Assembly (NCBI GenBank): GCA_963845185.1
Contig: CAWJRG010000005.1
Span: 256,001-320,000 of the forward strand
Source of the DNA: an uncultured bacterium
GTDB lineage: Bacteria > Oederibacteriota > PGYV01 > CAWJRG01
Length of the DNA: 64,000 nucleotides
Direction of reading: 5' to 3'
Below are positions 5,823-55,514 of the stretch, in pieces; position 1 is the stretch's first letter; the number at the start of each line of letters is the position of its first letter. The notes under the pieces are model-generated. The model worked only from the letters and a program-made list of their open reading frames with translations, had not been told where the DNA came from and did not search any database. The position numbers and the translations under genes are program-made.

Positions 5823-5891
5823 AGTTAAGAAGTCCAGTGGACTTCTTAACGGGTAGTCACATCATTTTTTTATAATATAAAAACTACCCTA
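5823..5891. mobile_element. Two-hairpin mini-element copy A, inside a TGTCATTGCGAG-type REP remnant
   Basis: GTTAAGAAGTCC-agt-GGACTTCTTAAC followed directly by GGGTAGT...ACTACCC. Flanks TGTCATTGCGAG and AAGTAACGAAGCA match the repeat at 13108. Confidence 0.7.
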
Positions 5892-5928
5892 AAGTAACGA
5901 AGCATTGACATACTTAAAGTGGCATAGT

Positions 5929-6840
5929 TTATTTTGTCTTTATTATATATTTCTCCACCATGTGATGCGGATAATAAGACATTTTGGCCTTTCTTAACCC
6001 CTCATTGCCTAAATCCTGTTCCCTGTTTATGAATTTGAATTTACCAAGGAATTTCTCGCAGAACATCTGGTTTATTGCCTGATAAATGCCCTTGAACTCA
6101 TGGTTCGCCTTTTCAATATGCACAACCGCGGTTTCAGGGTTTAATTCGCCTGCTACTGTAAACCCGTGCATTATGCTGTCTATTTTCAATGCTGCGCCTA
6201 TCACCGGAAGCTTTTCATAATTTTCCAGTATTTCCATGACTGCAATATTCTCGTTTAAAAGCGAAATGTCGTCCTTGCACGGTTTCATATCACACCATTT
6301 TTTTTGAAAATCTATGCATTCCTTTGTTACTTTGCCTTCTATAGCCACAAACTCGTGATTTGGGTACATGTTTTTAAATTTTTTTATCTGATTCCTTTTC
6401 CCGTCATACTTCCTGCCTTTTAATCCCACGAGGTCTTCTCTCAGGTAAACATAATCCCATTCCTTCCTGTCTTCTTCCACGGCAAACTCATCCTTAAGGC
6501 TCGGGAACCTATCGATAATCTCTTTTGTCGCTGCGAAAATCTGCGCGCATTTCCCGGCCCGGTCGCAGTTGCTCAACAGCGCCTGTATAGTTTTTAAAAT
6601 ATCGTTTTCGCCTATTGGCGGGAAAAAATAATGAGTGCCTTCCCTTTCTATCTCAACGCATATATTGCCGTTAAAACGCGATATTTTTCTTTCCTTTATA
6701 ACGCGCCAGGCAAACAATTCGGTAAACATAAGCTCCGAGACTTGCGGCAGGTATTTTTTTAGCGCAGCTTCGACAATCTCTCTGTGTTCCATGCCAAAAG
6801 AAACGCTTTCAGGGTATTCTGGTAAATGATTTATATTCAT
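5929..6840 (-). CDS. DUF2156 / phosphatidylglycerol lysyltransferase C-terminal-like protein
   Basis: DYVYLREDLVGLKGRKYDGKRNQI, VHIEKA, INREQDLGNEGLRKAKMSYYP. Confidence 0.85.
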   Translation of the reverse strand: MNINHLPEYPESVSFGMEHREIVEAALKKYLPQVSELMFTELFAWRVIKERKISRFNGNICVEIEREGTHYFFPPIGENDILKTIQALLSNCDRAGKCAQIFAATKEIIDRFPSLKDEFAVEEDRKEWDYVYLREDLVGLKGRKYDGKRNQIKKFKNMYPNHEFVAIEGKVTKECIDFQKKWCDMKPCKDDISLLNENIAVMEILENYEKLPVIGAALKIDSIMHGFTVAGELNPETAVVHIEKANHEFKGIYQAINQMFCEKFLGKFKFINREQDLGNEGLRKAKMSYYPHHMVEKYIIKTK

Positions 6841-6886
6841 ATGTTTTTCACGGGTAAAAATTTCTCCTTTGGTAAGATCTCGAGGT

Positions 6887-7915
6887 TTATAAGATTATCA
6901 CCTTGCCGTTACCTTTTGTAATTTCCCCTATATTATAAACTTTTTCTTTTCTTTCAATTAAAAATTTTTTTATTGCAGATTCTTTTTTCCTGTCCACTAT
7001 AAGCACCATGCCTATACCCATGTTATAAACACGGTGCATTTCAATATCATTTACTTTTCCAAGCTTTTGGATTAGTTTGAATATCGGCAAAATTTTCCAG
7101 CTGAATTTATTAATGACACAGTTTGTGTTTTTCGGCATGACTCTCGGTATATTGTCGTAAAATCCTCCTCCTGTCAGGTGAGCTATTCCGTGAACATGTT
7201 TAAAATATTTTTGTATCAGCGGGTAAACGGATTTTAAATAAGATTTATGAGGTTTCAAAAGCGCTGCGCCAAGCGTCGTGCCCAGCTCCTTAATATGCCT
7301 TGTATATGGAATGTTTTTGCCTTCAAATATCTTCCGCGCAAGCGAATACCCGTTTGTATGCAGCCCCACTGACGCAAGGCCCAGCACAACATCGCCTTTT
7401 TTGACTTTTTCCCCTGTTATTATCCTGCCTTTATCTATTTGGCCGATAATGGTGCCTACGAGGTCATAATCCCCCTGTTTGTACATGCCCGGCATTTCTG
7501 CTGTTTCCCCGCCGATTAACACACACTTATTTTCTCTGCAGGCTTTTGACAGGCCTTTTATTACGTCAACAAGCACATTGCCCCGGAGCTTACCTGTGCC
7601 GAAATAATCGAGAAAAAACAGGGGTTTTGCGCCCATTACAAGTATGTCGTTTACACAATGGTTCACTATGTCGCAACCCACAGTATCATGGATATTCAGT
7701 TGCTGGGCTATTTTTAATTTTGTACCTACCCCGTCCGTGCTTGCCACGAGCAGCCTGTTATCTGCTCCTTCAAGCCTGTACACGCCGCCAAATGAGCCGA
7801 TATCCGTGGCTGTATTTTTGTTAAAAGTTGACTTGATAAAAGCTTTTGCCCTGTTCAGCGCTTTTGCTGCAGCATCTATGTCAACTCCGGATTTTTTATA
7901 CAAATTTGACTTCAT
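6887..7915 (-). CDS. purM: Phosphoribosylformylglycinamidine cyclo-ligase (AIR synthetase)
   Basis: YKKSGVDI, STDGVGTK, GGETAEMPG, GLHTNGYSL, HLTGGG, NMGIGM. Confidence 0.97.
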   Translation of the reverse strand: MKSNLYKKSGVDIDAAAKALNRAKAFIKSTFNKNTATDIGSFGGVYRLEGADNRLLVASTDGVGTKLKIAQQLNIHDTVGCDIVNHCVNDILVMGAKPLFFLDYFGTGKLRGNVLVDVIKGLSKACRENKCVLIGGETAEMPGMYKQGDYDLVGTIIGQIDKGRIITGEKVKKGDVVLGLASVGLHTNGYSLARKIFEGKNIPYTRHIKELGTTLGAALLKPHKSYLKSVYPLIQKYFKHVHGIAHLTGGGFYDNIPRVMPKNTNCVINKFSWKILPIFKLIQKLGKVNDIEMHRVYNMGIGMVLIVDRKKESAIKKFLIERKEKVYNIGEITKGNGKVIIL

Positions 7916-7953
7916 TTGATTTTCCTTTTTTCAATTTGAATTTACTGCGAATT

Positions 7954-9021
7954 TCAGAACTTCGGATACGACCCGAGTATTTTCACAAACCCGCACTCCC
8001 TTGCTACTTCGGCCAGTGCTTTTTTAACCTTAAAATCGTCCTTATACCCGGTAAAATCCACAAAAAAATAATAATCCCATGCCTTTTTTCCCGAAGGCCT
8101 TGATTCAATGCTTGTCAGGTTTATGCCGTATTTTGAAAGCGGCTTCAAAAGATTGTAAAGGGCTCCGACTTTGTCTTTTATCGAAACCATTATGGAAGTT
8201 TTGTCATTCCCTGTTTTTCTGCTTTCTTCTTTGCCGAGGATAAAAAATCTTGTGGTATTGTCCGTCATATCCTCAATTGATGAAGCAATTATATTCAATT
8301 TATACATTGACGCAGCAAGTTTGTCGCCTATGCCGGCTGATTTTTTATCTTTTGCGGCCAGCATTGCTGATTTTGAATTGCTGGAAACTTCCTTGAGCTC
8401 GGCATGGGGCAAATTTGCCTCAAGCCAGTTCCTGCACTGTGCCCTAGTCTGGGGGTGAACGTAAACAACTTTTATGTCTTTTAAGTGTTTTGCTTTCGAT
8501 AGAAGATTGTGCTTAATATCCAGCATTACTTCGGAGCATATTTTCAGGTCAAAATCCGCAAACATGTCAAATGTGTAATTGACCGCGCCTTCGGTTGAGT
8601 TCTCTACAGGCACTACGCCATAATCAACATTGCCTTTTTCAACTTCCATAAACACATCTTTTATGCTTTCCGCCGGTATGTATTCCGTTGCACTGCCGAA
8701 CCTCTTCATAGCCGCGAGGTGCGTATAGGACGCCGGCGCTCCGAAATAAGCTACCCTGACTTTCCTCTGCAAATCCCTGCTGGCGGAAAAAATCTCGTTA
8801 TATACCGCCTCAATGGCCCGATGCGGGAACTTCCCTTTTGAGGCTTTTTTAATATTGTTCAGTACATTCGCTTCTCTTGCCGGGTCGTACACTCCGCTTT
8901 CGTTTTTAATTTTTAAACCGGCTATATTTTTTACAGCTGTGGCCCTCTCGTCAAGAAGACTGACTATTTTTTTATCTATAATGTCAATCTGCTTCCTTAT
9001 GCCTTTTATATCTTTTGCCAT
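7954..9021 (-). CDS. pheA: Chorismate mutase / prephenate dehydratase
   Basis: N-terminal CM domain (IRKQIDIID, YDPARE), PVENSTEG, NTTRF, ACT domain with IESRP. Confidence 0.95.
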   Translation of the reverse strand: MAKDIKGIRKQIDIIDKKIVSLLDERATAVKNIAGLKIKNESGVYDPAREANVLNNIKKASKGKFPHRAIEAVYNEIFSASRDLQRKVRVAYFGAPASYTHLAAMKRFGSATEYIPAESIKDVFMEVEKGNVDYGVVPVENSTEGAVNYTFDMFADFDLKICSEVMLDIKHNLLSKAKHLKDIKVVYVHPQTRAQCRNWLEANLPHAELKEVSSNSKSAMLAAKDKKSAGIGDKLAASMYKLNIIASSIEDMTDNTTRFFILGKEESRKTGNDKTSIMVSIKDKVGALYNLLKPLSKYGINLTSIESRPSGKKAWDYYFFVDFTGYKDDFKVKKALAEVARECGFVKILGSYPKF

Positions 9022-9022
9022 A

Positions 9023-9766
9023 TCATCCTCCAGATTGGGAATTGTGCATTGTGGGTTTGCCGATTACCTGTTTGTCAAAAAAGGCAATCTCCCGTTTTGT
9101 CAGGAAGCGCCATTGCCCCGGCTCAAGGCCGTCTATATTTACCGTGCCTACGCTTGTGCGTTTGAGCCAGACTGGCGGTATTCCTGCGGCAGCCATCATT
9201 AATTTTACCTGATGGTTAATTCCTTCGGTAATCGTGATATAAATCACGTCATTTTTATTGTTGCGCTGGTAAATTCCAACGTCTTTTGCCTTCAAAAATC
9301 TCCCGCCTATTTTAATGCCTTTCTTTAATTTATTCAAGGCATAATCATTCAGCCTGCCCTTTATTTTGGCAACATATACTTTCCTTACCTCTGAACTCGG
9401 ATGCGTAATTTTATTTGCCCAGTCGCCGTCGTTTGTCAGAAGCAGGCAACCGGTGGTATTGTAATCAAGCCTTCCTGCAGGAAAAATACGCATATTCAGC
9501 CCTACAATGTCCGTAACCGTCTTTCTTCCCCTGTCGTCAGACACCGTGGTGACGCACCCCTGCGGCTTGTTAAGGACTATATAAACCATTCTTTCGGGCT
9601 TTATAAGTTTGCCTTCAAATTTTACCGCGTCTTTTCCAGGGTTCACTTCAAATCCCGGAGTTGTTATTGTATTGCCGTTTACCTTAATTTGCCCCTGAGA
9701 TATGAGTTCTTCAGCTTTTCTCCTTGAAGTTATGCCGCAGCGGGCAATATATTGTTGTAATTTCAT
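9023..9766 (-). CDS. rluB: rRNA pseudouridine synthase, RluB/RsuA family
   Basis: S4 domain (SRRKAEELI), LNKP, GRLDYNTTG; follows scpAB as usual. Confidence 0.85.
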   Translation of the reverse strand: MKLQQYIARCGITSRRKAEELISQGQIKVNGNTITTPGFEVNPGKDAVKFEGKLIKPERMVYIVLNKPQGCVTTVSDDRGRKTVTDIVGLNMRIFPAGRLDYNTTGCLLLTNDGDWANKITHPSSEVRKVYVAKIKGRLNDYALNKLKKGIKIGGRFLKAKDVGIYQRNNKNDVIYITITEGINHQVKLMMAAAGIPPVWLKRTSVGTVNIDGLEPGQWRFLTKREIAFFDKQVIGKPTMHNSQSGG

Positions 9767-10473
9767 TCTGTTCCTGTATCCCCTTCCGGCCCCGGCCTGC
9801 TTTCTGTTGCCTTACCGCCGTCCTGCCCAGGCTCAGCTTCCGGCTGCGGCTTTCCGACAGAACCAGCGCTTTCTTCTTCAAAATTAAATACGGTCTGGTT
9901 TTTGACGTTCGCAACCCTTTCTTCCCACTTTTCTATGTTTTCCTCTTTTTCGAGTATGTTCTTTATCTCGTCTATTTTAGGCAAATCCTCAAGCGAGTTT
10001 ATGCCCAGGTATTGCAGAAATTCCTTTGTTGTGCTAAATAGAAGCGGCCTGCCCGGCGAGTCTTTCCTGCCTGATATTTTTATAAGGTTTCTTTCAAGGA
10101 GGGTATGGTATACGCCGTCAGAATTTACGCCTCTTATAAGCTCCACTTCCTGTTTTGTAAGCGGCTGCTTGTAAGCTATTATCGAAAGCACCTCAAGTGA
10201 AGGTTTCGACAGCCTCGCGAGCATCTTGTTTTTATATAATTTCTTTATAAAAGGCGCGTATTCCGCGTTTGTAAGAAGCTCATAGCCGCCTCCTATCTCC
10301 CTTATGCTTATTGGCGACCCTGCCTCCTTAAACTGGATATTGAGCCTGTCAATGGCCTCTTCTGCTTCCTTTGGCTGGACCTCCAGCACCTCGGCTATAG
10401 TCGAAATCGGCAAAGGTTTGTCGCTTGTAAAAAGCAGAGCCTCTATTATTTTTTCAATCGGTTTATCCGGCAT
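9763..10473 (-). CDS. scpB: SMC-Scp complex subunit ScpB
   Basis: IEALLF, LSIIAYKQPLTK, IRGVNS, GRPLLFSTTKEFL. ATG 10473 preferred over the ORF-track start at 10521. Confidence 0.93.
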   Translation of the reverse strand: MPDKPIEKIIEALLFTSDKPLPISTIAEVLEVQPKEAEEAIDRLNIQFKEAGSPISIREIGGGYELLTNAEYAPFIKKLYKNKMLARLSKPSLEVLSIIAYKQPLTKQEVELIRGVNSDGVYHTLLERNLIKISGRKDSPGRPLLFSTTKEFLQYLGINSLEDLPKIDEIKNILEKEENIEKWEERVANVKNQTVFNFEEESAGSVGKPQPEAEPGQDGGKATESRPGPEGDTGTE

Positions 10474-10550
10474 TTTTGTCCTTTTTTGTTGCAACGGTTT
10501 ATTGTTGTAGAAACGCCCCACCGGGTCGTCTCGACTTTATTAATAAAGAA

Positions 10551-11312
10551 TTATTCCTGGATGTTATTTAAAATCCCCATATCGATGTCTTTTTGTACGA
10601 GGATAATTTTTATGTCGTCAAAAATTTTTTCCTGATAAACGTTTATGACCCTTAAGCGCATGAGCTCCAGTATCGCGAGAAAAAGCGACACTACGTACAG
10701 CCTGCTTTTATTTTCACTTACAAGGCTGAAAAAACTTACGGATTCCGAATTTTTTAAAAGACCGATAAGCTCGTACATCCTGTCTTTCACCTTCATTGTC
10801 TCGCCCGGTATGAGGATAAGCCGCCTTTCCTTTATCCGGCCGAGCACTTCATCCATGGCTTTCACAAGCGCGTACATGTCGAGTGTAAGTTCCTTGTCCT
10901 GCGCGCTGATATTTATCGGGTAAAGTCTTTCAAACAAATCGCGTTTTCTCGCCTCAAACAGCTTCATTTTTTCCGATATTTCCTTGAAGGTGTTGTATTC
11001 TATGAGGTGCTGAACAAGGTCGAGCCTCGGGTCCTCTTCCTGATCCTCGACAAACTCGTCCTTGGGCAGAAGCATTTTTGACTTTATATAAATAAGCGTC
11101 GCCGCTATCACAATGAACTCGCTCGCAATGTCGAGATTGAGTTTTTTCATCATTTCAATATACGCGAGGTATTCCTCGGTAATCTTGGCTATTGGAATAT
11201 CGTAAATATCTATCTGGTTTTTCTTTATAAGGTATAAAAGCAGGTCAAAAGGGCCCTCAAATACCGCGAGCTTTAGCTGGTAATTTTCCTGTGCTGCCTG
11301 TGCCGCGCTCAT
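10551..11312 (-). CDS. scpA: Segregation and condensation protein ScpA
   Basis: FEGPFDLLLYLI, IKSKMLLP, FLAILEL. Confidence 0.95.
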   Translation of the reverse strand: MSAAQAAQENYQLKLAVFEGPFDLLLYLIKKNQIDIYDIPIAKITEEYLAYIEMMKKLNLDIASEFIVIAATLIYIKSKMLLPKDEFVEDQEEDPRLDLVQHLIEYNTFKEISEKMKLFEARKRDLFERLYPINISAQDKELTLDMYALVKAMDEVLGRIKERRLILIPGETMKVKDRMYELIGLLKNSESVSFFSLVSENKSRLYVVSLFLAILELMRLRVINVYQEKIFDDIKIILVQKDIDMGILNNIQE

Positions 11313-12286
11313 ACTTCACTCAGGTGCATAAGTTTTCTCACATGCGTCATGGTTTCCTCTGCAGTTTTCCGCGCCTGTTTATTGCCTTCGGCCATTATTG
11401 ACGCAATATCGGCCTTTTCCACTTCTTTCCTTTTTTCCCTTATAGGCACAAGTCTCGCGTTTATTTTCGCCGCCAGGCTGTTTTTGCAGTCTACGCAGCC
11501 GAGCTTTCCTGCCTTGCAGTCAGCCACAAGCGCGTCGTATTCTTTTGAGTTATAAATCCTGTGAAACGCGTTGCCCGCGCATGTTTCTGGATGCCCCTGG
11601 TCGTTTTTTCTGATCTTCTGCGGGTCAGTGAACATCAGCCTCACTTTTTCATTCACGGTTTTATCATCGTCAGTTAAGAATATCGCGTTATCGTAACTCT
11701 TGCTCATTTTCCTGCCGTCAATGCCGGGCAGCTTCGGGAATTCGGTAAGAATTTCTTTTGGTTCGTTAAAATATTTGCCGTATAAATTATTGAACCTCCG
11801 CGCGATTTCGCGCGTGATTTCAAGATGCGGCCTCTGGTCCTCGCCTATTGGGACTTTGTCCGCATTATACACAAGTATATCCGCGGCCTGCAGTACCGGA
11901 TATCCCAGGAATCCGTAGGTTGAAAGGTCCCTGTCCTTTAGTTCCTGCCTCTGTTCTTTATAAGTCGGGTTTCTTTCAAGCCACGGCACAGGCACAAGCA
12001 TGCCGAGTAAAAGGTAAAGTTCAGCGTGTTCTTTTACAGACGACTGGACAAAAAGAACGGCCTGCGCCGGGTCAAGCCCGACACTGAGCCAGTCCTTGAA
12101 CATATCCAGCGTATTTTCACGCACATTTTCCGGTTTTTCATAAGTTGTCGTAAGCGCGTGCCAGTCTGCCACCATATAAAAGGCCCGGTATTTATCCTGC
12201 ATGTCTACATAGCTTTTTAACACACCTTCAAGATGGCCCAGGTGCAATTTACCTGTCGGCCTCATTCCGCTTAGTACGCTTTGCAT
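11309..12286 (-). CDS. trpS: Tryptophan--tRNA ligase
   Basis: SGMRPTGKLHLGH, ADWHALTT, YPVLQAADIL, VPIGEDQ, KMSKS. Start at ATG 12286 after GGAG. Confidence 0.96.
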   Translation of the reverse strand: MQSVLSGMRPTGKLHLGHLEGVLKSYVDMQDKYRAFYMVADWHALTTTYEKPENVRENTLDMFKDWLSVGLDPAQAVLFVQSSVKEHAELYLLLGMLVPVPWLERNPTYKEQRQELKDRDLSTYGFLGYPVLQAADILVYNADKVPIGEDQRPHLEITREIARRFNNLYGKYFNEPKEILTEFPKLPGIDGRKMSKSYDNAIFLTDDDKTVNEKVRLMFTDPQKIRKNDQGHPETCAGNAFHRIYNSKEYDALVADCKAGKLGCVDCKNSLAAKINARLVPIREKRKEVEKADIASIMAEGNKQARKTAEETMTHVRKLMHLSEV

Positions 12287-12354
12287 ATTTTCTCCAATCA
12301 ACATTTTTGCATCAGCCCCAGGTATTCACAATCAGAGGCTTGGATACCCGAATT

Positions 12355-12984
12355 TTACATAAAAAATTTCATTAAAAGCATAATAAATTCAAATATGGGC
12401 CTGAATATAACGTTAAGCAGCCCTGTGACAAGAAGAATTATTACTATTATCATTCCCATCGGCTCAAGCCTGGCATATTTATATGCCAGATTTTCAGGCA
12501 GAAGCCCCATAATAATTTTTGACCCGTCAAGCGGCGGTACAGGTATCAGGTTAAAAGCAGCCAGCACAACATTTATGATCAGGTTTGCTTCCACAAAAGC
12601 CTGGAGCCCTGGCGACTGCAGCGCCGGCATAAATCCGGCTAATTTCCATATTAACAAGCCTACGATTGCGAGCAGTATGTTTGAACCCGGCCCTGCCAGA
12701 CTTACAAGCATCATGTCCCGCCTTGGATTTTTAAAATATCTCCAGTCCACAGGCACTGGTTTTGCCCCGCCAAGCACAAAAGGGGAATGAGTCAATATAA
12801 GGCCGACCGGCAGTATTATTGACCAGAATGGGTCTATATGGGGAAGCGGATTTAAAGTAAGCCTGCCCATGGTCTTTGCCGTGGGGTCTCCGAGTTTATA
12901 AGCTACGTAACCGTGTGATACTTCATGCACAATGACCGCAAGTATTAATACTATTATTTGTATTGCTATGCCCATTTTTTTCAC
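12355..12984 (-). CDS. Site-2 protease family protein (M50)
   Basis: HEVSHG, GRLTLNP, AGPGSN, NLIPVPPLDG. Confidence 0.92.
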   Translation of the reverse strand: MKKMGIAIQIIVLILAVIVHEVSHGYVAYKLGDPTAKTMGRLTLNPLPHIDPFWSIILPVGLILTHSPFVLGGAKPVPVDWRYFKNPRRDMMLVSLAGPGSNILLAIVGLLIWKLAGFMPALQSPGLQAFVEANLIINVVLAAFNLIPVPPLDGSKIIMGLLPENLAYKYARLEPMGMIIVIILLVTGLLNVIFRPIFEFIMLLMKFFM

Positions 12985-13107
12985 CTGATAAATTTTAAGT
13001 TGAATAATTATATCATATTTTAAAAATTAAGAAACCGTATTTTAACTGCCGCATTGCGTATATGAAACGATTAATATCTAGTAGATTACTGAAAAATTAT
13101 TTTAACG

Positions 13108-13203
13108 TGTCATTGCGAGAAGCGAAGCGACGAAGCAATCTCTCATTTAAAGAGAAAAACGAGATTGCTACGCCCATAAAAATAAAACGGGCTCGCAATG
13201 ACA
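13108..13203. repeat. REP-like palindromic element of the GTCATTGCGAG...CTCGCAATGAC type
   Basis: Perfect 12-bp terminal IR TGTCATTGCGAG/CTCGCAATGACA with an inner GCAATCTC/GAGATTGC stem. Confidence 0.8.
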
Positions 13204-13235
13204 AATTTCAGCGTTATTTTAGCAACTTCCCAAAT

Positions 13236-13264
13236 AAAAAAGGCGGCTTAATGCCGCCTTTTTT
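13236..13264. terminator. Intrinsic terminator (bidirectional form)
   Basis: AAAAAAGGCGGC-ttaat-GCCGCCTTTTTT after 13298..13945. Confidence 0.85.
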
Positions 13265-13297
13265 ATTTGTATTAAAATGTTTCACAGTCACTATTTA

Positions 13298-13945: not shown

Positions 13946-14030
13946 GTTTCCCTCCTTTTTAAAAATTTTAAATACTTATTGTATATTATTGTATAACAGA
14001 GGTAAAAAAATGTCAAAATGTTTTATTCTA

Positions 14031-15209: not shown

Positions 15210-15260
15210 TTTCTGCTCCCTCTGAATTATCTCCGATTATGTCGGAGGGTTCAAAAACTT

Positions 15261-15520
15261 CCCTTCCCCCTCGACGGGAGTTCAATACCCCTGTGGGGTG
15301 TTGAACGGGTAGAAGTCATCTTAATACTCTCAAATATGTCCTTTCTACACACAGCCGGGATGGGGGTGAGGTAGCGGCTGATTCTGTATCACTTCACGCC
15401 AACATCAGATCCCAAAACTTCTTTTTCTTATTTTGCATTATATCTTTTAGCTTAATTCACTTAGTTGTTGCTGCTGCTTCACCCTCACTTTTTTCTCCTC
15501 TCCCGTCAAGGGAGAGGAGA
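15261..15520. repeat. Pair of REP-like palindromes (CCCTTCCCCCTCGACGGG...GGGATGGGGGTGA and CACCCTCAC...TCCTCTCCC-gtcaa-GGGAGAGGA)
   Basis: Two oppositely oriented copies of a C-rich/G-rich palindromic repeat type; the left one is interrupted by mini-element copy B. Confidence 0.6.
15279..15352. mobile_element. Two-hairpin mini-element copy B (divergent)
   Basis: GTTCAATACCCC-tgt-GGGGTGTTGAAC then GGGTAGAA...TTCTACAC; same geometry as the other copies with compensatory changes. Confidence 0.65.
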
Positions 15521-15552
15521 CCGCCCACTTTAGTCGGTGGATTAATTAGAAT

Positions 15553-16473: not shown

Positions 16474-16526
16474 ATTCGAAACTCCCTTGCTTTCCGTTCA
16501 GAACCGGTTTACGCGTGCATAAAATG

Positions 16527-16557
16527 ATACAGGGCGGGCTTACCGCCCGCCCTGTAT
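16527..16557. terminator. Strong intergenic hairpin (terminator or mRNA stabiliser)
   Basis: Perfect 13-bp stem ATACAGGGCGGGC-ttacc-GCCCGCCCTGTAT; only a weak U tract on the minus strand. Confidence 0.5.
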
Positions 16558-16587
16558 ATTTGCCGCGTTCTGCCTGCGGCATGGATT

Positions 16588-18258: not shown

Positions 18259-18271
18259 GTTTTTCCTCCTT

Positions 18272-18433
18272 AGAGTCCGTTGATTTTGCTGAGCGTCAAC
18301 AGCGCAAGCAAAATCTTACGGAGTCTTATACCCGCTCCAGTCCCGAACTTGCCAAGAGTCAAATAGTCCAATGGACTATTTGACGGGTAGTTTCCAAAAT
18401 TTATTATCATCTAAAAACTACCCTGAAGCGGTG
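18272..18433. repeat. Composite REP-like repeat carrying mini-element copy C
   Basis: TCCGT..GATTTTGC...GCAAAATC..ACGGA hairpin, then TACCCGCTCCAGTCC...AAGCGGTG interrupted by the insert. Confidence 0.7.
18357..18425. mobile_element. Two-hairpin mini-element copy C
   Basis: GTCAAATAGTCC-aat-GGACTATTTGAC-GGGTAGTTT...AAACTACCC. Confidence 0.75.
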
Positions 18434-24069: not shown

Positions 24070-24081
24070 TTATATCTCCCT

Positions 24082-24244
24082 GCAAGAGTTTATTTTGCAA
24101 GCCTTCAGGGCGCAGCAAAATATTACTCTTGCATGCACCCGCTCAAGTCCGAGGCCTTCAGGCCGAGAGTCAAATAGTCCAGTGGACTATTTGACGGGTA
24201 GTTTCCGTAAATTATTATCATATAAAACTACCCTAAAGCGGTGA
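24082..24244. repeat. Composite REP-like repeat, filled counterpart of 2464-2561
   Basis: GCAAGAGTTTATTTTGCAA...GCAGCAAAATATTACTCTTGC.TGCACCCG is shared with 2466-2525. Confidence 0.8.
24168..24235. mobile_element. Two-hairpin mini-element copy D
   Basis: GTCAAATAGTCC-agt-GGACTATTTGAC-GGGTAGTTT...AAACTACCC. Confidence 0.78.
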
Positions 24245-44216: not shown

Positions 44217-44269
44217 CTATATTATAATGCTTGACTATATTTATATTTACTCTTGCTGTTTAATTATCT

Positions 44270-47200: not shown

Positions 47201-49927
47201 AGGCGTATATGTCCTGGTATCTGTCACGGATACTGTATTTGTAACTGTTAAAGTAAAAGTCGGCGTCGGCGTCACTGTAATGGTATACGTATATGTATAT
47301 GTAACTGTCCGCGTGTACGTGGATGTCGGCGAAAGCGTGTTTGTGAATGTCGGCGTCGGCGTCGGTGTCTGCGTCTGCGTGAATGTAGGCGTATCTGTCC
47401 TGGTATCTGTCACTGACACTGTATTTGTCACTGTCAAAGTAAACGTGGGCGTCGGCGTCACTGTAATGGTATCTGTATATGTATATGTAACTGTCTGGGT
47501 GTATGTGTATGTCTGTGTATTTGTCCTTGTAAATGTCGGAGTGGGTGACGGTGTATTCGTGTTTGTCGGCGTAAATGTATTCGTGTATGTCGGTGTCTGC
47601 GAAGGCGTATCTGTCCTTGTAAATGTCGGAGTATAAGTAACTGTGTATGTAAAGGTATATGTGTAAGTGTATGTTGCTGTGTTCGTATAAGTGTCTGTCG
47701 GCGTCGGAGTCTTTGTATATGTGGGCGATGGCGTGTCTGTATAAGTAAACGTGCTTGTCGGCGTATCTGTCCTGGTAAACGTATATGTAGGTGTGAATGT
47801 AGGCGTGTATGTAAATGTTGGCGTATTTGGATTAACAGTCGGTGTCGGTGTCCTTGTCGGCGTTGCCGTGAATGTAGGCGACATGCATATAATGTTAAAT
47901 ACAACCGGGTTTGAAAATTCCGATACTATATTTGTCGCTCCTATGCCTCCCACATTTGTAAAGCTCTGGGCGCATGCATTCGTTGATGCCCACCAAGTGT
48001 ATGACCCGCTCTGGTCGCTTATATTACCGAGGCTCCAGCTTACAATGCCTCCTGAATCTGTCCCGCTCGGGTTTGACCCCTGATATGTCAGCCCTGTAGG
48101 CACTGTATCGTACAAAGTCGCGTTTGCCGCCACTCTCGGTATTAATACTGCAAAGTTATTATATGAATCCTGCGTTGTGCCGTAGTCGCCTGACTGCTGC
48201 CCGACACCCGGCCTCCAGTCAGTATATGTACCTGTGCCTGAGCAGTTCCAGGCAGCGTTGGACGCTGCTCCGGTATCTGTCCATGTAACCTGGTAACCTG
48301 TCGGTTCAGGCTGGCCCACCTGCCATACTTTTGCCTGGAATATATAATCACTACCGTTTGTCGTCATCCATGTCTTTGTCCTATACCATGTATCCCCGGT
48401 TATTGTCACAGAACTTGAAGCGCCGTTCCACGTGCAGCTTGAGCCTGCACATTTCTGTATAGCCATGAATCCGCCTGCGGGAGCCGTATCTATTGATAAA
48501 AGCAGACTGTAAGCTTCGGCATTGCCTCCTGATTGCCCATTGCTTCTCAGGATTACCAGTCCGTCTGCGCCCGGGTATGTTCCTGGGTTTATATAAATAT
48601 CAGACTCAATTATTCCTGTGCAAACCTGCACGTTCGAAGGAGTCGGGTCGTCAAGCAAAAGCGCGGGATATGAAGCTGTCTGTCCTGCTCCTGTCAATAT
48701 CCTGTCACCTGTATTGCACGGGTCTCCTATTGTCCATGTTCCATTGTCGCCGCTTGTAAATGGCAATAATTTCCACCCGGAAGGCGGCCCGCTGTTGCCG
48801 TATGTCCCTGTCGCTGTGTCGTCAAACGCCCTGTAGTCTTGGAGCTTGTCCCCGTTCACCTGGTAATTGAGATAATATGATATCGTCACTGTGGCGTTTG
48901 TCGCTTTCATAAATGTGGTTACGCTTTCCAGTTTTTCCACTGATATTGCTGCCTGGCCAACTATCAGCGTTGCTGACGCGCTTGCATTGGTTGAACCGCT
49001 TGTTGCGTTTGCAGTATTCGGCACTGACGTTCCTGACGCCATTGCAGTTGTCATCCTCATCAATATCCATACTGTTCCTTGTTTTGTATAGGTTGAAGCA
49101 GGGAATGTCCATGTTACCGTGCCTGACGTGGATCCTGCCGCAGGCGCGCTCACGCTCCCGCTGTTTATTGAGCTCGGACCTACAGACACCAAAGCAAGGC
49201 TTCCTCCGCCCGGCAAAGCGTCTGTTATTGTCAGCGATCCGTTACCGTATGTGTAATCTATTGAAAATAATACAAGGTCGCCGACTGACTGCAGAACTCC
49301 CTCTACTCTTTTATCCAAAGTAACTGAATTAGCAGGCGGCGTAGGTAATGACCAGCTTAATACTGCCCCTGAGCCGCTTGTACTGCATGCTCCATTTGAT
49401 AAAGCAGTCCAAAGACTCCCCCCAAAATATGAAGTTTGTGCTCCTATCAGTAAATTAAGTGTTGTCGAGCCGCATGCTGTGCCCATCTGCTGTGCGCTCG
49501 GCATTGTCAGGTTATACGACTCTGTAACCAACATGCCTGAACCGCTACCGCAATCAGTACAATTGGCAACAAATGGTGATGGTTGAGGCATATGATAGCC
49601 AAAATCAGTGCCGCTGCTTCCGTTATTCGGATTTGTGTCCGGAATGTTAATGCCATCACTGCTTATTAAAAATATCTGTCCTCCCGTCTGTGCCGGCTGG
49701 AATGTGCTGCTCGTGCTCACTGCTACAAGCAACTCATTGGGAGTAGAATACTGATCCACGCACATTTGCAAAGTCAGAATAAATTGCTGTCCCCAGCCCG
49801 GGCTTGCCGGTGCTATATTCTCAGAAATTATCTGCGGAGAGCCAGCGTAAAGTAAGCTGCCGGATAATATTAATATTATTATGCCAATAAAAATATTTAT
49901 CTTTTTTAAACTGTTTCGCATTCTCAT
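44270..49927 (-). CDS. Giant secreted Thr-x-Thr repeat surface protein, subtype A (1885 aa)
   Basis: Closest paralog of 31055..36715 (LDKRVEGVLQSVGDLVLFS, GASSS, near-identical tail) but lacks its third DUF11-like domain. Confidence 0.9.
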   Translation of the reverse strand: MRMRNSLKKINIFIGIIILILSGSLLYAGSPQIISENIAPASPGWGQQFILTLQMCVDQYSTPNELLVAVSTSSTFQPAQTGGQIFLISSDGINIPDTNPNNGSSGTDFGYHMPQPSPFVANCTDCGSGSGMLVTESYNLTMPSAQQMGTACGSTTLNLLIGAQTSYFGGSLWTALSNGACSTSGSGAVLSWSLPTPPANSVTLDKRVEGVLQSVGDLVLFSIDYTYGNGSLTITDALPGGGSLALVSVGPSSINSGSVSAPAAGSTSGTVTWTFPASTYTKQGTVWILMRMTTAMASGTSVPNTANATSGSTNASASATLIVGQAAISVEKLESVTTFMKATNATVTISYYLNYQVNGDKLQDYRAFDDTATGTYGNSGPPSGWKLLPFTSGDNGTWTIGDPCNTGDRILTGAGQTASYPALLLDDPTPSNVQVCTGIIESDIYINPGTYPGADGLVILRSNGQSGGNAEAYSLLLSIDTAPAGGFMAIQKCAGSSCTWNGASSSVTITGDTWYRTKTWMTTNGSDYIFQAKVWQVGQPEPTGYQVTWTDTGAASNAAWNCSGTGTYTDWRPGVGQQSGDYGTTQDSYNNFAVLIPRVAANATLYDTVPTGLTYQGSNPSGTDSGGIVSWSLGNISDQSGSYTWWASTNACAQSFTNVGGIGATNIVSEFSNPVVFNIICMSPTFTATPTRTPTPTVNPNTPTFTYTPTFTPTYTFTRTDTPTSTFTYTDTPSPTYTKTPTPTDTYTNTATYTYTYTFTYTVTYTPTFTRTDTPSQTPTYTNTFTPTNTNTPSPTPTFTRTNTQTYTYTQTVTYTYTDTITVTPTPTFTLTVTNTVSVTDTRTDTPTFTQTQTPTPTPTFTNTLSPTSTYTRTVTYTYTYTITVTPTPTFTLTVTNTVSVTDTRTYTPTYTQTATPTPTSTFTNTLSPTYTYTQTPTFTRTYTPTATPTYTNTQSPTPTYTQTVTYTFTYTATKTYTPTVTNTVTPTYTITMTFTVVILSATYTPTFTITQTSTPTYTVTVTDTKTYTPTNTPTYTNTASPTPTYTQTVTYTYTFTDTMTVTPSPSPTMTITVSVTFTRTYTPTFTLTDTPTPTPTYTNTASPTPTYTRTVTYTSTATPTPTDTVTPTYTITMTFTVVIVSATITPTYTVTKTITVTDTQTYTPTSTPTYTNTTSPTPTYTQTVTYTSTNTASYTNTVTPTYTITMTFTVVILSATFTPTYTATRTITVTDTQTDTPTATPTYTNTTSPTPTYTQTVTDTSTATGTYTDTVSPTYTITMTFTVVILSATYTPTYTATRTITVTDTQTDTPTATPTYTNTTSPTFTYTQTVTDTSTATPSYTNTDTPTCTITMTFTVVILSATFTPTYTVTKTTTLTYTQTDTPSDTPTYTYTSTETDTGTPTYTYTATPTATATDTATPTYTNSPVDTPTDTPTVSPTPSSTPTDTSTYTNTPTDTPTFTPTVSITSSSTLTLTYTYTLTSTYTDTPVDTPTYTSTSTPTYTSTLTQTYTYTDTITATMTWTNTRTLTTTNTATNTLSATITYTSTNTQTVTITITPVPFPYVMNISVYNEAGELVKTIVSTTTSQEAQQVQLLLNGNQATVVAPGSGTPLTIKVPGLETPDQQKNGYASFTWDGTNSAGQDVTNGTYYIKETTTDPYGHSDIITKQITAINEDQYVQVNIFNSAGELVQTITAPYNGSGQVSLSISNSTGSNNYVFGIGKGAPAIVIGYTTTGLNVPWDGKNAQGNYLQSGVYEVQLVVKTNQGISIKASKSITLLNEGNTDVLGTIKSLPNPYIGDTSTPLIFTWQPSANGAIKIKIYNIAGELVRTLVGDLGAASINWDLKSVGGQTVSSGTYICVVEGVDTIGNKTRKIVKLSAIIQSGQ

Positions 49928-49969
49928 TACTGTATTGACCGCCTTATTTTGCTAAATTTTTACTATATT

Positions 49970-49997
49970 TTAGACAACAGAAAACAGCTTAAGTTTC
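49970..49997 (-). promoter_or_regulatory. ECF sigma-type promoter GAAACTT-N14-TGTCTAA
   Basis: 43 nt upstream of ATG 49927. Confidence 0.75.
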
Positions 49998-50180
49998 GGT
50001 TAAAATTAAGGTTTTATTGACTCGCTTTCTATAATATTAAGGGATTTTGCCAAGGCCGCCTTTTTCTGTTTTACAATGCAATATTATATATCACAAATTG
50101 CTACGTGTAAATACATAAAATTTCTTTTTAAATTGCTTTATTTAGCTTTTTATCGAATGTACACTGGTATTTATGCAAAT

Positions 50181-50207
50181 AAAAAAGGCGGCTTTCACCG
50201 CCTTTTT
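50181..50207. terminator. Intrinsic terminator
   Basis: AAAAAAGGCGG-cttt-ca-CCGCCTTTTT. Confidence 0.8.
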
Positions 50208-50237
50208 GCCCTATAATCTGCCAATATTGCAGATTAT

Positions 50238-50312
50238 TTACCTTATAACCGCAATTTTTTTCCTTACAACCTTTCCTTCTGCCTGAATTTTAAGAAGATA
50301 TAGGCTGTTTAC
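50238..50312 (-). pseudogene. Remnant 3' end of a CTD-bearing gene (VNSLYLLKIQAEGKVVRKKIAVIR*)
   Basis: Manual translation resembles the CTD tails VANGVYILRVASKTKTVTKKISVVK* and SGIYIYLMEAVAGGNKAKANGKIAVMK*; no start of its own. Confidence 0.55.
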
Positions 50313-50313
50313 C

Positions 50314-52650
50314 CTATTTCTTTGCTTTTTCCGCCTGCTGAATTTGGTTGTACAAATTCACCAGTTGCGGGTCATTGCCAACTGTCTGTATTGCTTCTTT
50401 AAGTATATTTAATGCTTTGCCGGGTTGCCCCAATTTATAATATGTTTGAGCTATATCAGCGTAAATTCCGGCGCTTTTATCCCAATCCTCTGCTTTCTGA
50501 AAATATTTTAGTGCCTCCTCAAAATTGCTGTTTTTAAAATTATATACCCCTATATTTCTATATATTTCATTTGCCTTATATCCATATTCGAGTAAAAAGT
50601 CAAAATAATCCAACGCTTTTAAATACTTGCCGGCCGCCAACAAAGCAACAGCTTGATTAAACAGCGCTTCTAACTGCGTAGGCATATCAATATTTCCCAA
50701 CTGATATATATATTGTTGTAAAGCTGTTTTATTTTCACTGCCATATTTCATTGCTTCTTCAAACATATCCTTTGCCATTGGCCATAGCTTTTCGTTATAA
50801 TAAATTCTGCCTAATAATTCGTAAGCCTGATAATAATTTTCTTTTGTCTTAATAGTTTTCTTTAAATATTTTATCTGGTTATCTTTATCATTAAGTTCTT
50901 TGTAAACAAATGATAAGTCATAATAAATATGTGCAGTTTCTGAATCCTCAGGAAATAACAAAGCATAATTAAAATATTTTATTGCTAATGTATAATTTTT
51001 TTCTTCAAAAAACTCATAAGCTTTTTCAGCAAATTTTTCTTTATATAAAGAAACCAGCTTTTTATCATAATCAGTATTTGTATCATAAATACCACGACAT
51101 GAATAAATTTTATAAATTTCATCAGTTGTATTTTCATTTCTTGAATTTATTTTATAAAGTAACCCGTAAGTTTCATGGCTAAAATTACTTTTAAGAAATT
51201 CTTCAAAATTGCTCAAATAAAAATCATTATTTCCGGAAAATTTTCTGATTATATTGATTAAATTATTAGCAGAGCTTTGTGCGTCCATATTCAAATCTCC
51301 ATACTTCCGGTTAAAATCCTTTATTCCCCACATATATTGAAGTGAATAAATGCTTGCGTATTTAATATCCCGTGCCCTGTGTTCCACCCAGCGCAAATAT
51401 GTAATCGGCATTATAAAATAATCACCGTACGCCATATAAAAACTGCCCGGTTTTATCGTATCAAGGATATTATCCCCAAAATCATACGCAATAAAATTAT
51501 ACCGGTTATTATTTGTCTTAAACTGTAAAAATCCGGTATATAATAAAATGATAATTAAAAAAACAAAAAGGATGCCTTTGTAAACTTTCTTAATAAATAT
51601 TCCCGATATTAAATATATTCCGTTTATTGAAAAAATTGCCAATATATATAAGGAAGGCATTAGAAACGTTCCTGTCGCCCATTCGAATTTCTCTCCCAAG
51701 CGCAGAGAAAAAATTACTATAAATAGATTTACCAAAAATATGCTTAAATAAAGAAATGAAATTTCTTTTTTCACCTTTCTTAATGCATAAAATCCAATAA
51801 CGCCAAATATTCCAAATAAGTTAAAATTCGTAAAAAATAAACCAATTATTTCTTTTATGTGATATCCCTTGACAAATACTGACGGAAAACCACCATGCGA
51901 ATAACCGGATAAAAAAATTGTCCAGAATAAGTCCTTTAAATTATCGGGCCTGTCCATAAAAACAAAAATATTTTCATTTTCAGCCCTTATTGGCAAATAA
52001 ATATATGTGCTTAGGCCCAATAATAACAATAGCAGGCACTCGGCAAAATTTTTCCCTGTTAGTTTTCTCCTGTATTTATAGAATATAAATGCGAGAAAAG
52101 GCAAAAAAATCGCCATGCTTGGCCAGTGGTTTGTAAGCGAAAGCCCGAAAACATATATTATTAAATATAAATTTTTAATATCGAATGCATTTGACAAGCG
52201 CAAACTTAAAAATATTAAAACAGATAAAAATAAAAGATTTAAAATATATATCCCGCCTTTTGCTTCTATTGCCTGATTCCAGTAAATATATGAAAATGCG
52301 AGTATAAAGATACTTAAAAAATTTATATTTTTATTCTCATAGTGAAAAATTTGAAACGTAATTTGTTTGCTAAGATAATAAAACAATAATAGTACTAAAA
52401 TGGCAAGAAATATTGCAAATAAGTTTATTCTGAAAGCAGGCGAGCCAACCGGCAATAAACTAAATATTTTAGCCGCCATTGTAAAAAATGGGTATCCCGG
52501 CGGGTGGCTTATGCCGAGGGTGTATGCAGATGTTATTGTTTCAGGCGAGTCGTCATTCTTAAATGCCGGGAATGTGGTATAAATATATATTTGAAATATT
52601 GCAATTAGAGATAATAACAATACTATAATATCTTTATATTTTTTGGGCAT
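50314..52650 (-). CDS. DUF2723 / TMEM260-like membrane glycosyltransferase with C-terminal TPRs
   Basis: DDSPETITSAYTLGISHPPGYP, WNQAIEA, GLSLTNHW, YLPIRA; multiple TM helices; TPR tail. Confidence 0.85.
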   Translation of the reverse strand: MPKKYKDIIVLLLSLIAIFQIYIYTTFPAFKNDDSPETITSAYTLGISHPPGYPFFTMAAKIFSLLPVGSPAFRINLFAIFLAILVLLLFYYLSKQITFQIFHYENKNINFLSIFILAFSYIYWNQAIEAKGGIYILNLLFLSVLIFLSLRLSNAFDIKNLYLIIYVFGLSLTNHWPSMAIFLPFLAFIFYKYRRKLTGKNFAECLLLLLLGLSTYIYLPIRAENENIFVFMDRPDNLKDLFWTIFLSGYSHGGFPSVFVKGYHIKEIIGLFFTNFNLFGIFGVIGFYALRKVKKEISFLYLSIFLVNLFIVIFSLRLGEKFEWATGTFLMPSLYILAIFSINGIYLISGIFIKKVYKGILFVFLIIILLYTGFLQFKTNNNRYNFIAYDFGDNILDTIKPGSFYMAYGDYFIMPITYLRWVEHRARDIKYASIYSLQYMWGIKDFNRKYGDLNMDAQSSANNLINIIRKFSGNNDFYLSNFEEFLKSNFSHETYGLLYKINSRNENTTDEIYKIYSCRGIYDTNTDYDKKLVSLYKEKFAEKAYEFFEEKNYTLAIKYFNYALLFPEDSETAHIYYDLSFVYKELNDKDNQIKYLKKTIKTKENYYQAYELLGRIYYNEKLWPMAKDMFEEAMKYGSENKTALQQYIYQLGNIDMPTQLEALFNQAVALLAAGKYLKALDYFDFLLEYGYKANEIYRNIGVYNFKNSNFEEALKYFQKAEDWDKSAGIYADIAQTYYKLGQPGKALNILKEAIQTVGNDPQLVNLYNQIQQAEKAKK

Positions 52651-52986
52651 TAAATTATCCTTTCAATTATTATTGTACTTTTCGCATTAATTTAACATAA
52701 AAAAATATTTTTTTCAGAAGTATTTTTTATGGGCATAAATATATCGGGTGGAATTTTTAGTATTTATTTTTTATAGTAAATCATGCCCGACGATTCATAA
52801 TTTTTTCCAAAAATCCGGGTCTGTTTCCTTGATTTTTTTCAAGGCAAAAAAGCTTGTTTTGCTGGTCGCCATTGCTCTCTAATAAGCAAGCGCCAACTGG
52901 CAATAAACGCCTTTCGATTGGTTTGTAATCATACGGAAACCGTTCCTTATTTCTAAAAACGCTTATAAAGGTATAAGCCGTTTACC

Positions 52987-55347
52987 TTATTTCTTTACTT
53001 TTTCCGCATGCTGAATCTGGTTATATAAATTTACAAGCTGCGGATCGTTGCCAAAGACCTGCATTGCCTCTCTTAAAGTGTTTAAAGCCTTGTACGGTTG
53101 TCCTAGTTTAATATATGTTTGGGCTATATCAGTATAATTTACGGCACTTTTATCTGATTCCGATGCTTTCTGAAAGTACTTTAATGCTTCTTCAAAATTA
53201 TTGATTTTAAAATTACATATCCCCATATTTTTATATACTTCAACCGCGGCGTAATTCTGTTCAAGTAAAAATCCGAATAAATCGAGTGCTTTTAAATACC
53301 TGCCCGAAGCCATAAATGCTGCAGCCTGTCCGGATAGCGCTTTAAATTGTGAATAAGTATTTATTTCATCTATCTGATTTACATATTGTTGAAGCATGGC
53401 CTTATTATCACTGCCGTATTGTATTGCTTTTTCAAACATTTCTTTAGCCATAGGCCATAATCTTTCATTAAAATAAATTCCGCCCAATACCTCATATGCC
53501 TTATAATAATTTTCCTTTGCTCTAAAAGTCTCTTTTAAATATTTTATCTGGTTATCTTCGTCACTGATCGCTTTATAAGCCAAAAATAAATCATAATAAG
53601 TATAAGCCTTTGCTGAATTCCAGGGAAATAACAATGCGTATTTATAAGTTTCTATTGCTTCCTTGTATCTTTTTTCATCAAAAAAATCATATGCTTGATT
53701 TGTTAATTGTGCGCTGTACAGCGATATAAGAGCTTTGTCATAATCATCTTTGGCCGCGAATATCCCCCTGAATGCATAATTTTTAAATATCCCCGCCGGA
53801 ATGTGTTCGTTTTCGGCCGCAACCCTAAGCAACAGGCCTTTTGATTTTAGTTTAAAATTACCAATGTGATTTTTCATTTTTCCGGGAAAACCCTGTGAAA
53901 AATAAATGTTTTTTTCAGGAAAATACTTTCCGGTTATATTGCCTATATTGTCCATTACATTTAAATAACCCTGCTTAAGGGTAATTTGCCCGTATTTTTT
54001 TACAATGCTGTTGATTCCCCATTCATGTGAAAGATTATATATTGTCAGAATATTGATGTTGTCCGCTTTATGTTGCACTATCTGCCTGTAGCTGGCCGGC
54101 AGTGCATAATTGTCCCCGTAAGGTATGTAAAAACTCCCTGGTTCCATAGTCGCGGCCACATTATTTTCAAAATCGTAGGAAAGGTAATTAACGCTGCTAT
54201 TATTTATACTGAAATTCAAAAAACCGGCACATAATAAAATTACGATTGAAAGAGAGTAAAACGTATTTTTTAAAAATATCGCTTTTGCGTTTTTTGACAA
54301 TAAATGCATTCCGTTAATTAAAAAAATAAACAGTATATAGATGCTCGGCATTAGGAAGGTTCCCGTTGCCCATTTATATATTTCACCCAAACGCAAAGAA
54401 AATACAACTATGAATAAATTGGTTAAAAGCATACTGAGATAAAAAAATAGAATTTCCTTTTTCCTGCGCCAAAGCTCATAAATACCCAAAATTATGAATA
54501 TCCAGAATACATAAAAATCTTTTAGTAATAAAGTAATAATTTCTTCTATTTGATAATTATTAATGTCTAAATTTGGCAAAGTTTTATGTTCATAACCTGA
54601 TAAAAAAATTAGCCGGAGGAAATCGCCGATATTATCAGGCCTGTCAATAAAAACAAAAATATTCTCATTTTGTATTCTTAAAGGCAAAAAAGCGTATACG
54701 CTTAATCCCAATAATAATAATATTAAGGATATTATGAGATTTTTTACGGCTAATTTTTCCCGGTATTTATAAAAAATATATCCCAGGGCCGGAAAAAAAA
54801 TCAGCATACTCGGCCAATGGTTTGTCAATGAAAGTCCAAAAATATAAATTAACAGGTAAAAACGCCCGGTATTAAATGTGTAAAACAAATTAAAACTTAG
54901 GTATATTAATGCCGATAAAAACAATAAATTCAGTATGTATATCCCGCCTTTTGCCTCAATAGTTTGATTCCAAAACAAAAAGGAAAAAGCCATGACAAAA
55001 ACCCCAAAACAATTTATGATTTTGTTATTGTCGTTAAAAATAAAATAGATATTTTTTTTGATTATGAAATAAAAAAGCAGCAGGGCCATCAGGCCGAGAA
55101 ATATTGCAAATAAGTTTATTCTGAAAGCAGGCGAACCAACCGGCAATAAACTAAATATTTTAGCCGCCATTGTAAAAAGCGGGTATCCCGGAGGGTGGCT
55201 TATTCCGAGGGTATATGCAGATGTTATTGTTTCAGGCGAGTCGTCATTTTTAAATGTCGGAAATGTAGTATATAGATATATTTGAAATATCCCGGCTAAA
55301 GAAACTATTAGTATTATAATTTCTTTGTATTTTTTAATCATTTTCAC
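52987..55347 (-). CDS. DUF2723 / TMEM260-like membrane glycosyltransferase with C-terminal TPRs (tandem paralog)
   Basis: Same motifs as 50314..52650; near-identical N-terminal region. Confidence 0.85.
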   Translation of the reverse strand: MKMIKKYKEIIILIVSLAGIFQIYLYTTFPTFKNDDSPETITSAYTLGISHPPGYPLFTMAAKIFSLLPVGSPAFRINLFAIFLGLMALLLFYFIIKKNIYFIFNDNNKIINCFGVFVMAFSFLFWNQTIEAKGGIYILNLLFLSALIYLSFNLFYTFNTGRFYLLIYIFGLSLTNHWPSMLIFFPALGYIFYKYREKLAVKNLIISLILLLLGLSVYAFLPLRIQNENIFVFIDRPDNIGDFLRLIFLSGYEHKTLPNLDINNYQIEEIITLLLKDFYVFWIFIILGIYELWRRKKEILFFYLSMLLTNLFIVVFSLRLGEIYKWATGTFLMPSIYILFIFLINGMHLLSKNAKAIFLKNTFYSLSIVILLCAGFLNFSINNSSVNYLSYDFENNVAATMEPGSFYIPYGDNYALPASYRQIVQHKADNINILTIYNLSHEWGINSIVKKYGQITLKQGYLNVMDNIGNITGKYFPEKNIYFSQGFPGKMKNHIGNFKLKSKGLLLRVAAENEHIPAGIFKNYAFRGIFAAKDDYDKALISLYSAQLTNQAYDFFDEKRYKEAIETYKYALLFPWNSAKAYTYYDLFLAYKAISDEDNQIKYLKETFRAKENYYKAYEVLGGIYFNERLWPMAKEMFEKAIQYGSDNKAMLQQYVNQIDEINTYSQFKALSGQAAAFMASGRYLKALDLFGFLLEQNYAAVEVYKNMGICNFKINNFEEALKYFQKASESDKSAVNYTDIAQTYIKLGQPYKALNTLREAMQVFGNDPQLVNLYNQIQHAEKVKK

Positions 55348-55355
55348 CCTTTTAT

Positions 55356-55514
55356 GACAGCGTTTGTTTTATCAAGCCGTCATTATGGCAGTCAAATAGT
55401 CCTATGGACTATTTGACGGGTAGTTTCCATAAGCTATCATATAAAAACTACCCGACAAAACATTACGCTGTCTTATACCCGCTCAAGTCCGGATTCTATC
55501 CGGACAAGCGGTAT
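55356..55514. repeat. Composite REP-like repeat carrying mini-element copy E in its first hairpin; second hairpin intact
   Basis: GACAGCGT..TGTTTT...AAAACA..ACGCTGTC then TACCCGCTCAAGTCCGGA-ttcta-TCCGGACAAGCGGTA. Confidence 0.72.
55390..55455. mobile_element. Two-hairpin mini-element copy E
   Basis: GTCAAATAGTCC-tat-GGACTATTTGAC-GGGTAGTTT...AAACTACCC. Confidence 0.75.

Follow-up and report, generated by a model that had tools for sequence, protein, structure and literature searches.

The window, a 64,000-nucleotide stretch of contig CAWJRG010000005.1 from an uncultured bacterium of the Oederibacteriota, contains five copies of a small structured DNA element, each of which interrupts a palindromic repeat. 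All five lie on the plus strand, between minus-strand genes. Copy 1 (5823..5889, +), of subfamily A, is an A followed by a 12-bp stem with a 3-nt loop, directly abutting a GGGTAG...CTACCC stem that encloses an AT-rich loop; it splits a TGTCATTGCGAG...CGAAGCAATC-type repetitive extragenic palindrome (REP), host C (5811..5905, +), from which about 3 host bases are lost. Copy 2 (15279..15350, +) belongs to subfamily B, in which the second stem is longer, and splits the 3' arm of a CCCCTTCCCCC...GGGATGGGGG-type REP, host B (15261..15376, +), with a net loss of 2 bases relative to 26 empty paralogues. The other three copies are again of subfamily A and occupy host A, a ~100-nt two-hairpin repeat. 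Copy 3 (18357..18423, +) splits hairpin 2 (site d) of a host copy that adjoins a minus-strand ribosome-binding site (18270..18433, +), copy 4 (24168..24233, +) splits hairpin 2 at the same site in a second host copy (24081..24243, +), and copy 5 (55390..55453, +) splits hairpin 1 (site a) of a third (55354..55514, +), whose left flank allele is shared by 4 filled copies and absent from the rest of the genome. The initial annotation of the window had reported five copies at these starts with one layout and one orientation. A covariance model returned all five as its top matches (E 7e-19 to 9e-7; four of the five were in its training set), and 58 of the 65 copies in the genome lie on the C-rich strand, confirming both points. 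The count of four interrupted host hairpins in the initial annotation also holds, with the refinement that these represent three repeat families, two of the hairpins coming from the one ~100-nt repeat. Between 24270 and 62888 the window also contains several very large minus-strand open reading frames (up to 2370 aa), mostly of threonine-rich repeats; one that was scanned gave weak DUF11 and C-terminal sorting-domain matches.

Across the genome, the element is a gene-less cassette of two abutting hairpins spanning ~62-71 nt (about 65 nt): a purine, stem 1 (12 bp, 3-nt loop) and then, directly, stem 2 enclosing the AT-rich loop. The first base, initially described as A, proved to be A in 77 of 87 copies; the remaining 10 have G. 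Stem 2 is commonly GGGTAG...CTACCC and distinguishes three subfamilies, one of which has GTTGAG/CTCAAC in its place. Stem 1 was Watson-Crick paired in 713 of 744 cells over 62 copies of this genome (3 of the 65 copies were omitted from the pairing and end, junction and promoter counts, and 1 of 65 from the distance and tree analyses). The covariation of the stems that had been read from the window copies was borne out in a 24-copy alignment, where pairing extends to 99.8% of cells and both sides differ in 7 of 18 pairs. None of 500 shuffles matched this level of covariation, a result that is not a probability because the copies are related. Folding z-scores ranged from -7.3 to -8.6 for four of the window copies and was -3.4 for the copy at 15279 (200 shuffles). 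The element lacks terminal inverted repeats, with palindromes near its ends; AG is frequent at both ends, and neither junction has a fixed tetranucleotide, the flanks varying on both sides. Copies are divergent, with a median pairwise distance of 0.32 and a single identical pair among 89 copies.

We counted 65 copies in this 3.5-Mb genome, made up of 57 full-length profile matches (E below 1e-6) and 8 weaker variants added by eye. A descriptor combining the hairpin (3-nt loop) with GGGTAG matched 52 seeds here, compared with none in any of three locally shuffled genomes. A metagenome scan gave 26 loci, of which 23 had the full layout, with 25 pattern-matched copies; three metagenome loci with hairpin 1 only (L057, L058 and L075) and five matches from the genome collection, 8 in all, were excluded. 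Many of the metagenome copies come from relatives with flanking-gene identity of roughly 77-93%. Pattern searches of relatives were positive in 0 of 30 and 0 of 98 genomes, and covariance models run on the 98 other genomes of the phylum identified one clear carrier, G027, of another order. Because these covariance searches scored few candidates per genome (~52-54, under strict filters), they do not show absence from the other genomes. Two scans of viral contigs found 0 element copies, plasmids gave no element match, and phages gave 24-25-base AT-rich matches only. One DNA sequencing run provided fragmentary cover, with no joint across any copy. No Rfam covariance model matched over any copy examined (E up to 5 in one scan and up to 1 in another).

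G027 carries 14 full and 4 interrupted copies. These keep a 27-nt first hairpin (11 bp, TGAAY loop) and a GGG...CCC second stem with different stem letters; stem 1 is Watson-Crick paired in 150 of 154 cells, at a mean pairwise identity of ~66% among the 14 copies. The GTAG that lies paired within stem 2 is substituted in most of them, as it is in subfamily C. Host C accommodates some of the G027 copies; others sit at the ends of another palindrome (in 3 of the 7 copies of that palindrome) or inside their own copies, and two lie just past stop codons with no repeat evident. Eleven of the 18 are grouped in three short regions (L200, L201 and L204), two of which also contain IS110, and at L161, L162 and L164 the TGAAY loop of the first hairpin is split by other small hairpins. 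In a further genome, G007, four near-identical weak matches (L148-L150 and L152, E 0.002-0.006; excluded from the counts) pair a TGAA-containing first hairpin with a CGGTA...TACCG second stem and adjoin REP-like palindromes; they are possibly a third lineage. In three Flavobacteriaceae genomes (L076-L078), a hairpin resembling hairpin 1 occurs with no second stem, nested in similar flanking sequence.

The association with repeats was strong. A repeated 12-mer was present in the flank of 53 of the 65 copies, compared with 21% of 4000 random intergenic points, and the other 12 copies also touch repeats as judged by eye. Nearly all copies are inside repeats, and the description of a gene-less element strongly tied to palindromic repeats stands. 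By our assignment, the hosts comprise at least four unrelated repeat families together with the element's own copies: host A (40 copies at five sites), host B (a CCCTCTCCC-type REP, 12 copies), host C (3 copies), host D (a CCCCTTAACAAGGGG-type REP, 8 copies) and two others. Empty paralogues of these hosts are abundant in the genome, and an empty-paralogue match was found for 75 of the 86 copies examined (2 of the 25 metagenome copies were also omitted from this analysis). At least 12 junction classes were defined by eye. As the initial annotation had stated, there is no target duplication at the junctions; the usual outcome is instead a net loss of 2-3 host bases (46/75), the first lost base being G in 44 of 75. 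This base preference, together with the G027 copies after stop codons, does not support its suggestion that targeting depends on structure alone. Self-nesting was also observed: in this genome two copies lie within the first hairpin of an older copy, and nesting recurs in G027. A second structured repeat, a GATATCCC-NGT-GGGATAT hairpin present in two copies (C9:824402 and C10:688402, minus strand), is possibly a distant relative. The same CC-NGY-GG loop core is found in short hairpins that directly adjoin tRNA-like sequences at C1:96351, C1:96514 and C5:346777.

Copies tend to be most similar to others at their own site. Among the 40 host-A copies, the nearest neighbour was at the same site in 28, compared with 10.3 when labels were shuffled. 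On a weakly resolved tree of 89 copies we counted 36 site changes, which falls between the minimum of 11 and the shuffled value of 61; therefore co-propagation takes place, and so does repeated new entry. Private left-flank alleles accompany some filled repeats: one was found in 4 filled copies and 0 elsewhere, a second in 5 filled copies and 1 other (non-repeat) place, and these alleles span 2-4 host subtypes, while the commonest empty left-flank allele was filled in 0 of 26 cases. In host B, two cassette types and two host subtypes form a 2x2 pattern, and two identical 70-nt copies occupy different host subtypes. The host repeats are themselves present or absent between relatives, and one whole composite of host and element precedes different genes in two genomes. 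At seven orthologous loci (L052, L054, L059, L062, L064, L073 and L074) this genome lacks both the host and the element; at L071 the element is at a different site in the same gene leader, and at L060 the same element is common to both. We considered the difference between L060 and C10:633358 as possible left-end activity of the element and rejected this, as a host A insertion at the ribosome-binding site explains it. Together, the site clustering, the private flanks and the mobility of the hosts suggest that many copies likely reflect conversion or hitchhiking and not fresh insertion, and the assumption that each copy is a separate insertion is left without support. Fresh insertion would then be rare but recurrent, with most copies arising from conversion between sister repeats or from riding on the host.

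Taken to its limit, hitchhiking would mean that the element never moves alone, having become lodged in a few repeats through an ancient accident and been carried ever since as a module of those mobile repeats. The clustering by site, the joint absence of host and element at the seven orthologous loci and the composite at non-orthologous genes would fit such a passenger. We nevertheless consider this unlikely, given that unrelated hosts show at least 12 junction classes and a shared junction rule, and given the identical 70-nt pair in different host subtypes, the self-nesting, the different hosts in G027 and the 36 site changes on the tree.

Retention of the element for a function, for example portable promoter activity or the regulation of gene leaders by a hairpin, would offer another explanation. 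In 37 of 62 copies, a TTGACG/TTAACG hexamer in stem 1 is accompanied at promoter spacing by a TATAAT-like hexamer (at least 5/6), a count that exceeds those of 300 loop shuffles (mean 10.7, maximum 21) and is inflated because the copies are related. The words of loop 2 and the total length of the element are, moreover, conserved across orders. The promoter-like pair was, however, present in only 2 of 14 G027 copies, the predicted promoter would be antisense to the neighbouring genes in 54 of 65 cases, and the presence of the element is not conserved at orthologous genes, all of which makes a functional explanation quite improbable.

An enzyme encoded elsewhere, either HUH (IS200/IS605 or RAYT) or IS110-type, had been proposed initially as the mover. 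We found 0 Y1/HUH matches and 0 TnpB matches in this 99%-complete genome, and the first half of the proposal is not supported. The genome has 7 IS110 matches, several DDE transposase families, two DUF559 matches, two four-helix-bundle genes and 6 reverse-transcriptase copies, all of one group II intron. Ends resembling those of the element were absent from its IS110s, from 16 multi-copy regions (no element-profile match better than E 2.3) and from the group II intron, and three IS1182-type end pairs among those listed were unrelated to it. G027 has 6 Y1 and 4 IS110 matches and 0 reverse-transcriptase matches. A lost or unlisted enzyme may be the mover. Resemblances to IscB/HEARO ends, to group II intron domain VI and to IS1182 inverted repeats were also considered and found no support in Rfam, in the intron comparison or in the insertion sequence ends seen.

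Mobilization in trans by a Y1 HUH enzyme (TnpA or RAYT), acting on a PATE- or REPIN-like element on the lagging-strand template and since lost from this genome, would account for several of these features. The two hairpins, the lack of terminal repeats or duplication and the apparent replication-strand bias fit a single-strand model (PMC5027513), GTAG...CTAC lies inside stem 2, and the last two bases on the bottom strand of the element are CT, the dinucleotide at which RAYTs cleave (PMC8266576). Such an enzyme is not far to seek in G027, with its 6 Y1 matches, but the element is absent from all 6 of those loci, and here there is no Y1 match at all. The junctions, moreover, lack a fixed tetranucleotide, host bases are lost and not kept, and neither subfamily C nor most of the G027 copies retain GTAG. 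We therefore regard a Y1 mover as fairly unlikely.

A role for an IS110-family recombinase in trans appears very improbable. IS110 is present in both genomes, one of its families inserts in host B and abuts one element copy, and AG is common at both ends of the element; in both genomes, however, the IS110 ends are unrelated to the element and IS110 has its own targets, and the proteins of the two genomes are 33-35% identical. IS110 was present in 13 of 60 genomes, 11 of which lack the element, and by our reasoning recombination at a 2-base core should not lose 2-3 bases. The family that reaches host B is 1288 bp long, has five near-identical copies (L011-L015) and inserts after GGAGAG, with at least three insertions in host-B REPs and one that directly abuts an element copy. 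A stand-alone DUF559 gene (L016, C10:215445-215765) lies between host-B-type palindromes and is a candidate partner of the host-B REP.

Reverse transcription of an RNA copy, starting at the 3' end of a nascent lagging strand and carried out by the enzyme of the resident group II intron, would fit the fixed left end, the variable right end, the target loss and the strand polarity, and six reverse-transcriptase copies are available in this genome. With 0 matches in G027, and with the element unlike both the coding region of the intron and its printed ends, we find this scarcely credible. The intron itself, in six near-identical copies, inserts right after the ATG downstream of a GGAGG ribosome-binding site, and close to its 3' end it has a GGAGG and an ATG of its own. 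Its sites (L081-L085) are C9:699945, C9:813074, C9:846914, C10:385218, the C10:831796 region and C11:63444, with a diverged copy at C1:269894. A literature search on a group II intron inserting after a start ATG returned nothing on point. Start-codon-targeting introns have already been described.

The explanation we favor, with slightly better than even confidence, is a two-hairpin cassette that resides in palindromic repeats and spreads by rare fresh insertion plus a likely commoner copying from repeat to repeat or riding on the host. We observed its layout, its host preference, the junction loss and the co-carried flanks directly, and we infer entry coupled to the replication fork and homing between repeats. 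Fresh insertion would likely involve single-stranded DNA at the fork: a host arm that has folded there could be cut, or could expose a 3' end, and the cassette would be copied in with a small loss. Filled repeats would then likely donate the cassette to sister repeats, together with up to ~10 flanking bases, and the fixed fold is likely the feature read by a putative processing protein. A bolder claim, which we put forward only tentatively, is that structure-encoded hyperparasites of REPs form a class, of which this element would be the first member to be defined: a cassette of 62-71 bases, its two-hairpin fold conserved across bacterial orders, that would enter unrelated hairpin arms at the fork with deletion of 2-3 bases and home with short co-converted flanks, by means of host replication or repair proteins or an undescribed enzyme and not of a known transposase family.

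Several observations weigh against this explanation. We found no mover and, among the partial matches in the genome examined for long forms, no long autonomous copy with the same ends enclosing a transposase or nuclease. Comparison of the metagenome loci with this genome yielded no orthologous host lacking only the element, so that the empty orthologous sites anticipated initially were seen only as joint absences of host and element, and movement of the element independent of its host rests on paralogues. The junctions are inferred from the best-matching paralogues, and some of these matches are poor. Strand bias extends to G027, where 14 of 18 copies lie on the C-rich strand and flanking-gene direction is mixed; in this genome it is confounded, as empty host A is already on the C-rich strand in 132 of 145 cases, and for hosts B-D that strand holds 18 of 23 filled and 40 of 71 empty repeats (p=0.08). 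Finally, the wobble counts do not settle the folding strand: 17 G-T vs 2 A-C in stem 1, 7 vs 8 in stem 2, and 0 vs 2 in stem 1 of G027.

These findings bear on how small palindromic repeats move without a cognate transposase; the mobilization of SMR elements has been called enigmatic (PMC3119063). The family also illustrates why a tally of copies within repeats exceeds the number of insertions. Its two lineages differ in their stems and have no candidate enzyme in common that is linked with the element. What the family provides as handles are its many empty paralogues, a repeated junction rule and co-carried flanks, although the host organisms appear to be uncultured. Searches of libraries and papers did not turn up the element, which is real and represents a new form among the small palindrome-targeting mobile repeats. 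The literature searched consisted of listings and the starts of abstracts and did not describe it; its novelty may also depend on the repeat tables that accompany PMC3733652 and PMC3119063.

The element is distinct from a MITE in that it lacks transposon-shared terminal inverted repeats and target duplication, and from an IS110 derivative in that it has no shared ends or donor junction and shows no conservative recombination at a 2-base core. The SDR elements of Nostocaceae, reportedly described by Elhai et al. in 2008, are said to be very small, nested, shorter than the present element, cyanobacterial and without a known enzyme. The present element is, like REPs, REPINs and nested REPs, a small intergenic palindromic unit (PMC3116915, PMC3733652, PMC8266576). 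REPINs are REP doublets (PMC3116915), RAYTs recognize GTAG plus a hairpin and cleave at CT (PMC8266576), and GTAG-15, GTAG-23 and CGTC-1 repeats occur inside other palindromes (PMC3733652); our element, in contrast, is not an inverted REP doublet, has a GTAG that is paired and unconserved, comes without a RAYT and uses several unrelated hosts. PATEs lack terminal inverted repeats and have near-terminal palindromes (PMC3119063), and the insertion of IS200/IS605 elements takes place on the lagging-strand template, 3' of a fixed tetra- or pentanucleotide (PMC5027513). The element resembles PATEs and IS200/IS605 ends in its lack of terminal repeats and duplication, its near-terminal palindromes and perhaps an apparent replication-strand bias, which in this genome is confounded by host orientation, and differs from them in having no fixed target tetra- or pentanucleotide, a non-conservative insertion, hairpins at the very ends, and no cognate insertion sequence or Y1 gene found in this genome or at the G027 Y1 loci. 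SMR-A elements of Haloquadratum walsbyi offer a further close parallel: they are likewise gene-less and short, are present in dozens of copies, make no target duplication and strongly prefer to insert in the palindromes of other mobile elements (PMC3119063). SMR-A, however, is ~110 bp long, its terminal inverted repeats are prominent, and copies of a type are >95% identical (PMC3119063), whereas the present element is 62-71 nt, without terminal repeats, built of two abutting hairpins in divergent, covarying copies, and removes host bases. It thus works like SMR-A or a PATE, yet departs from each in a defining property.

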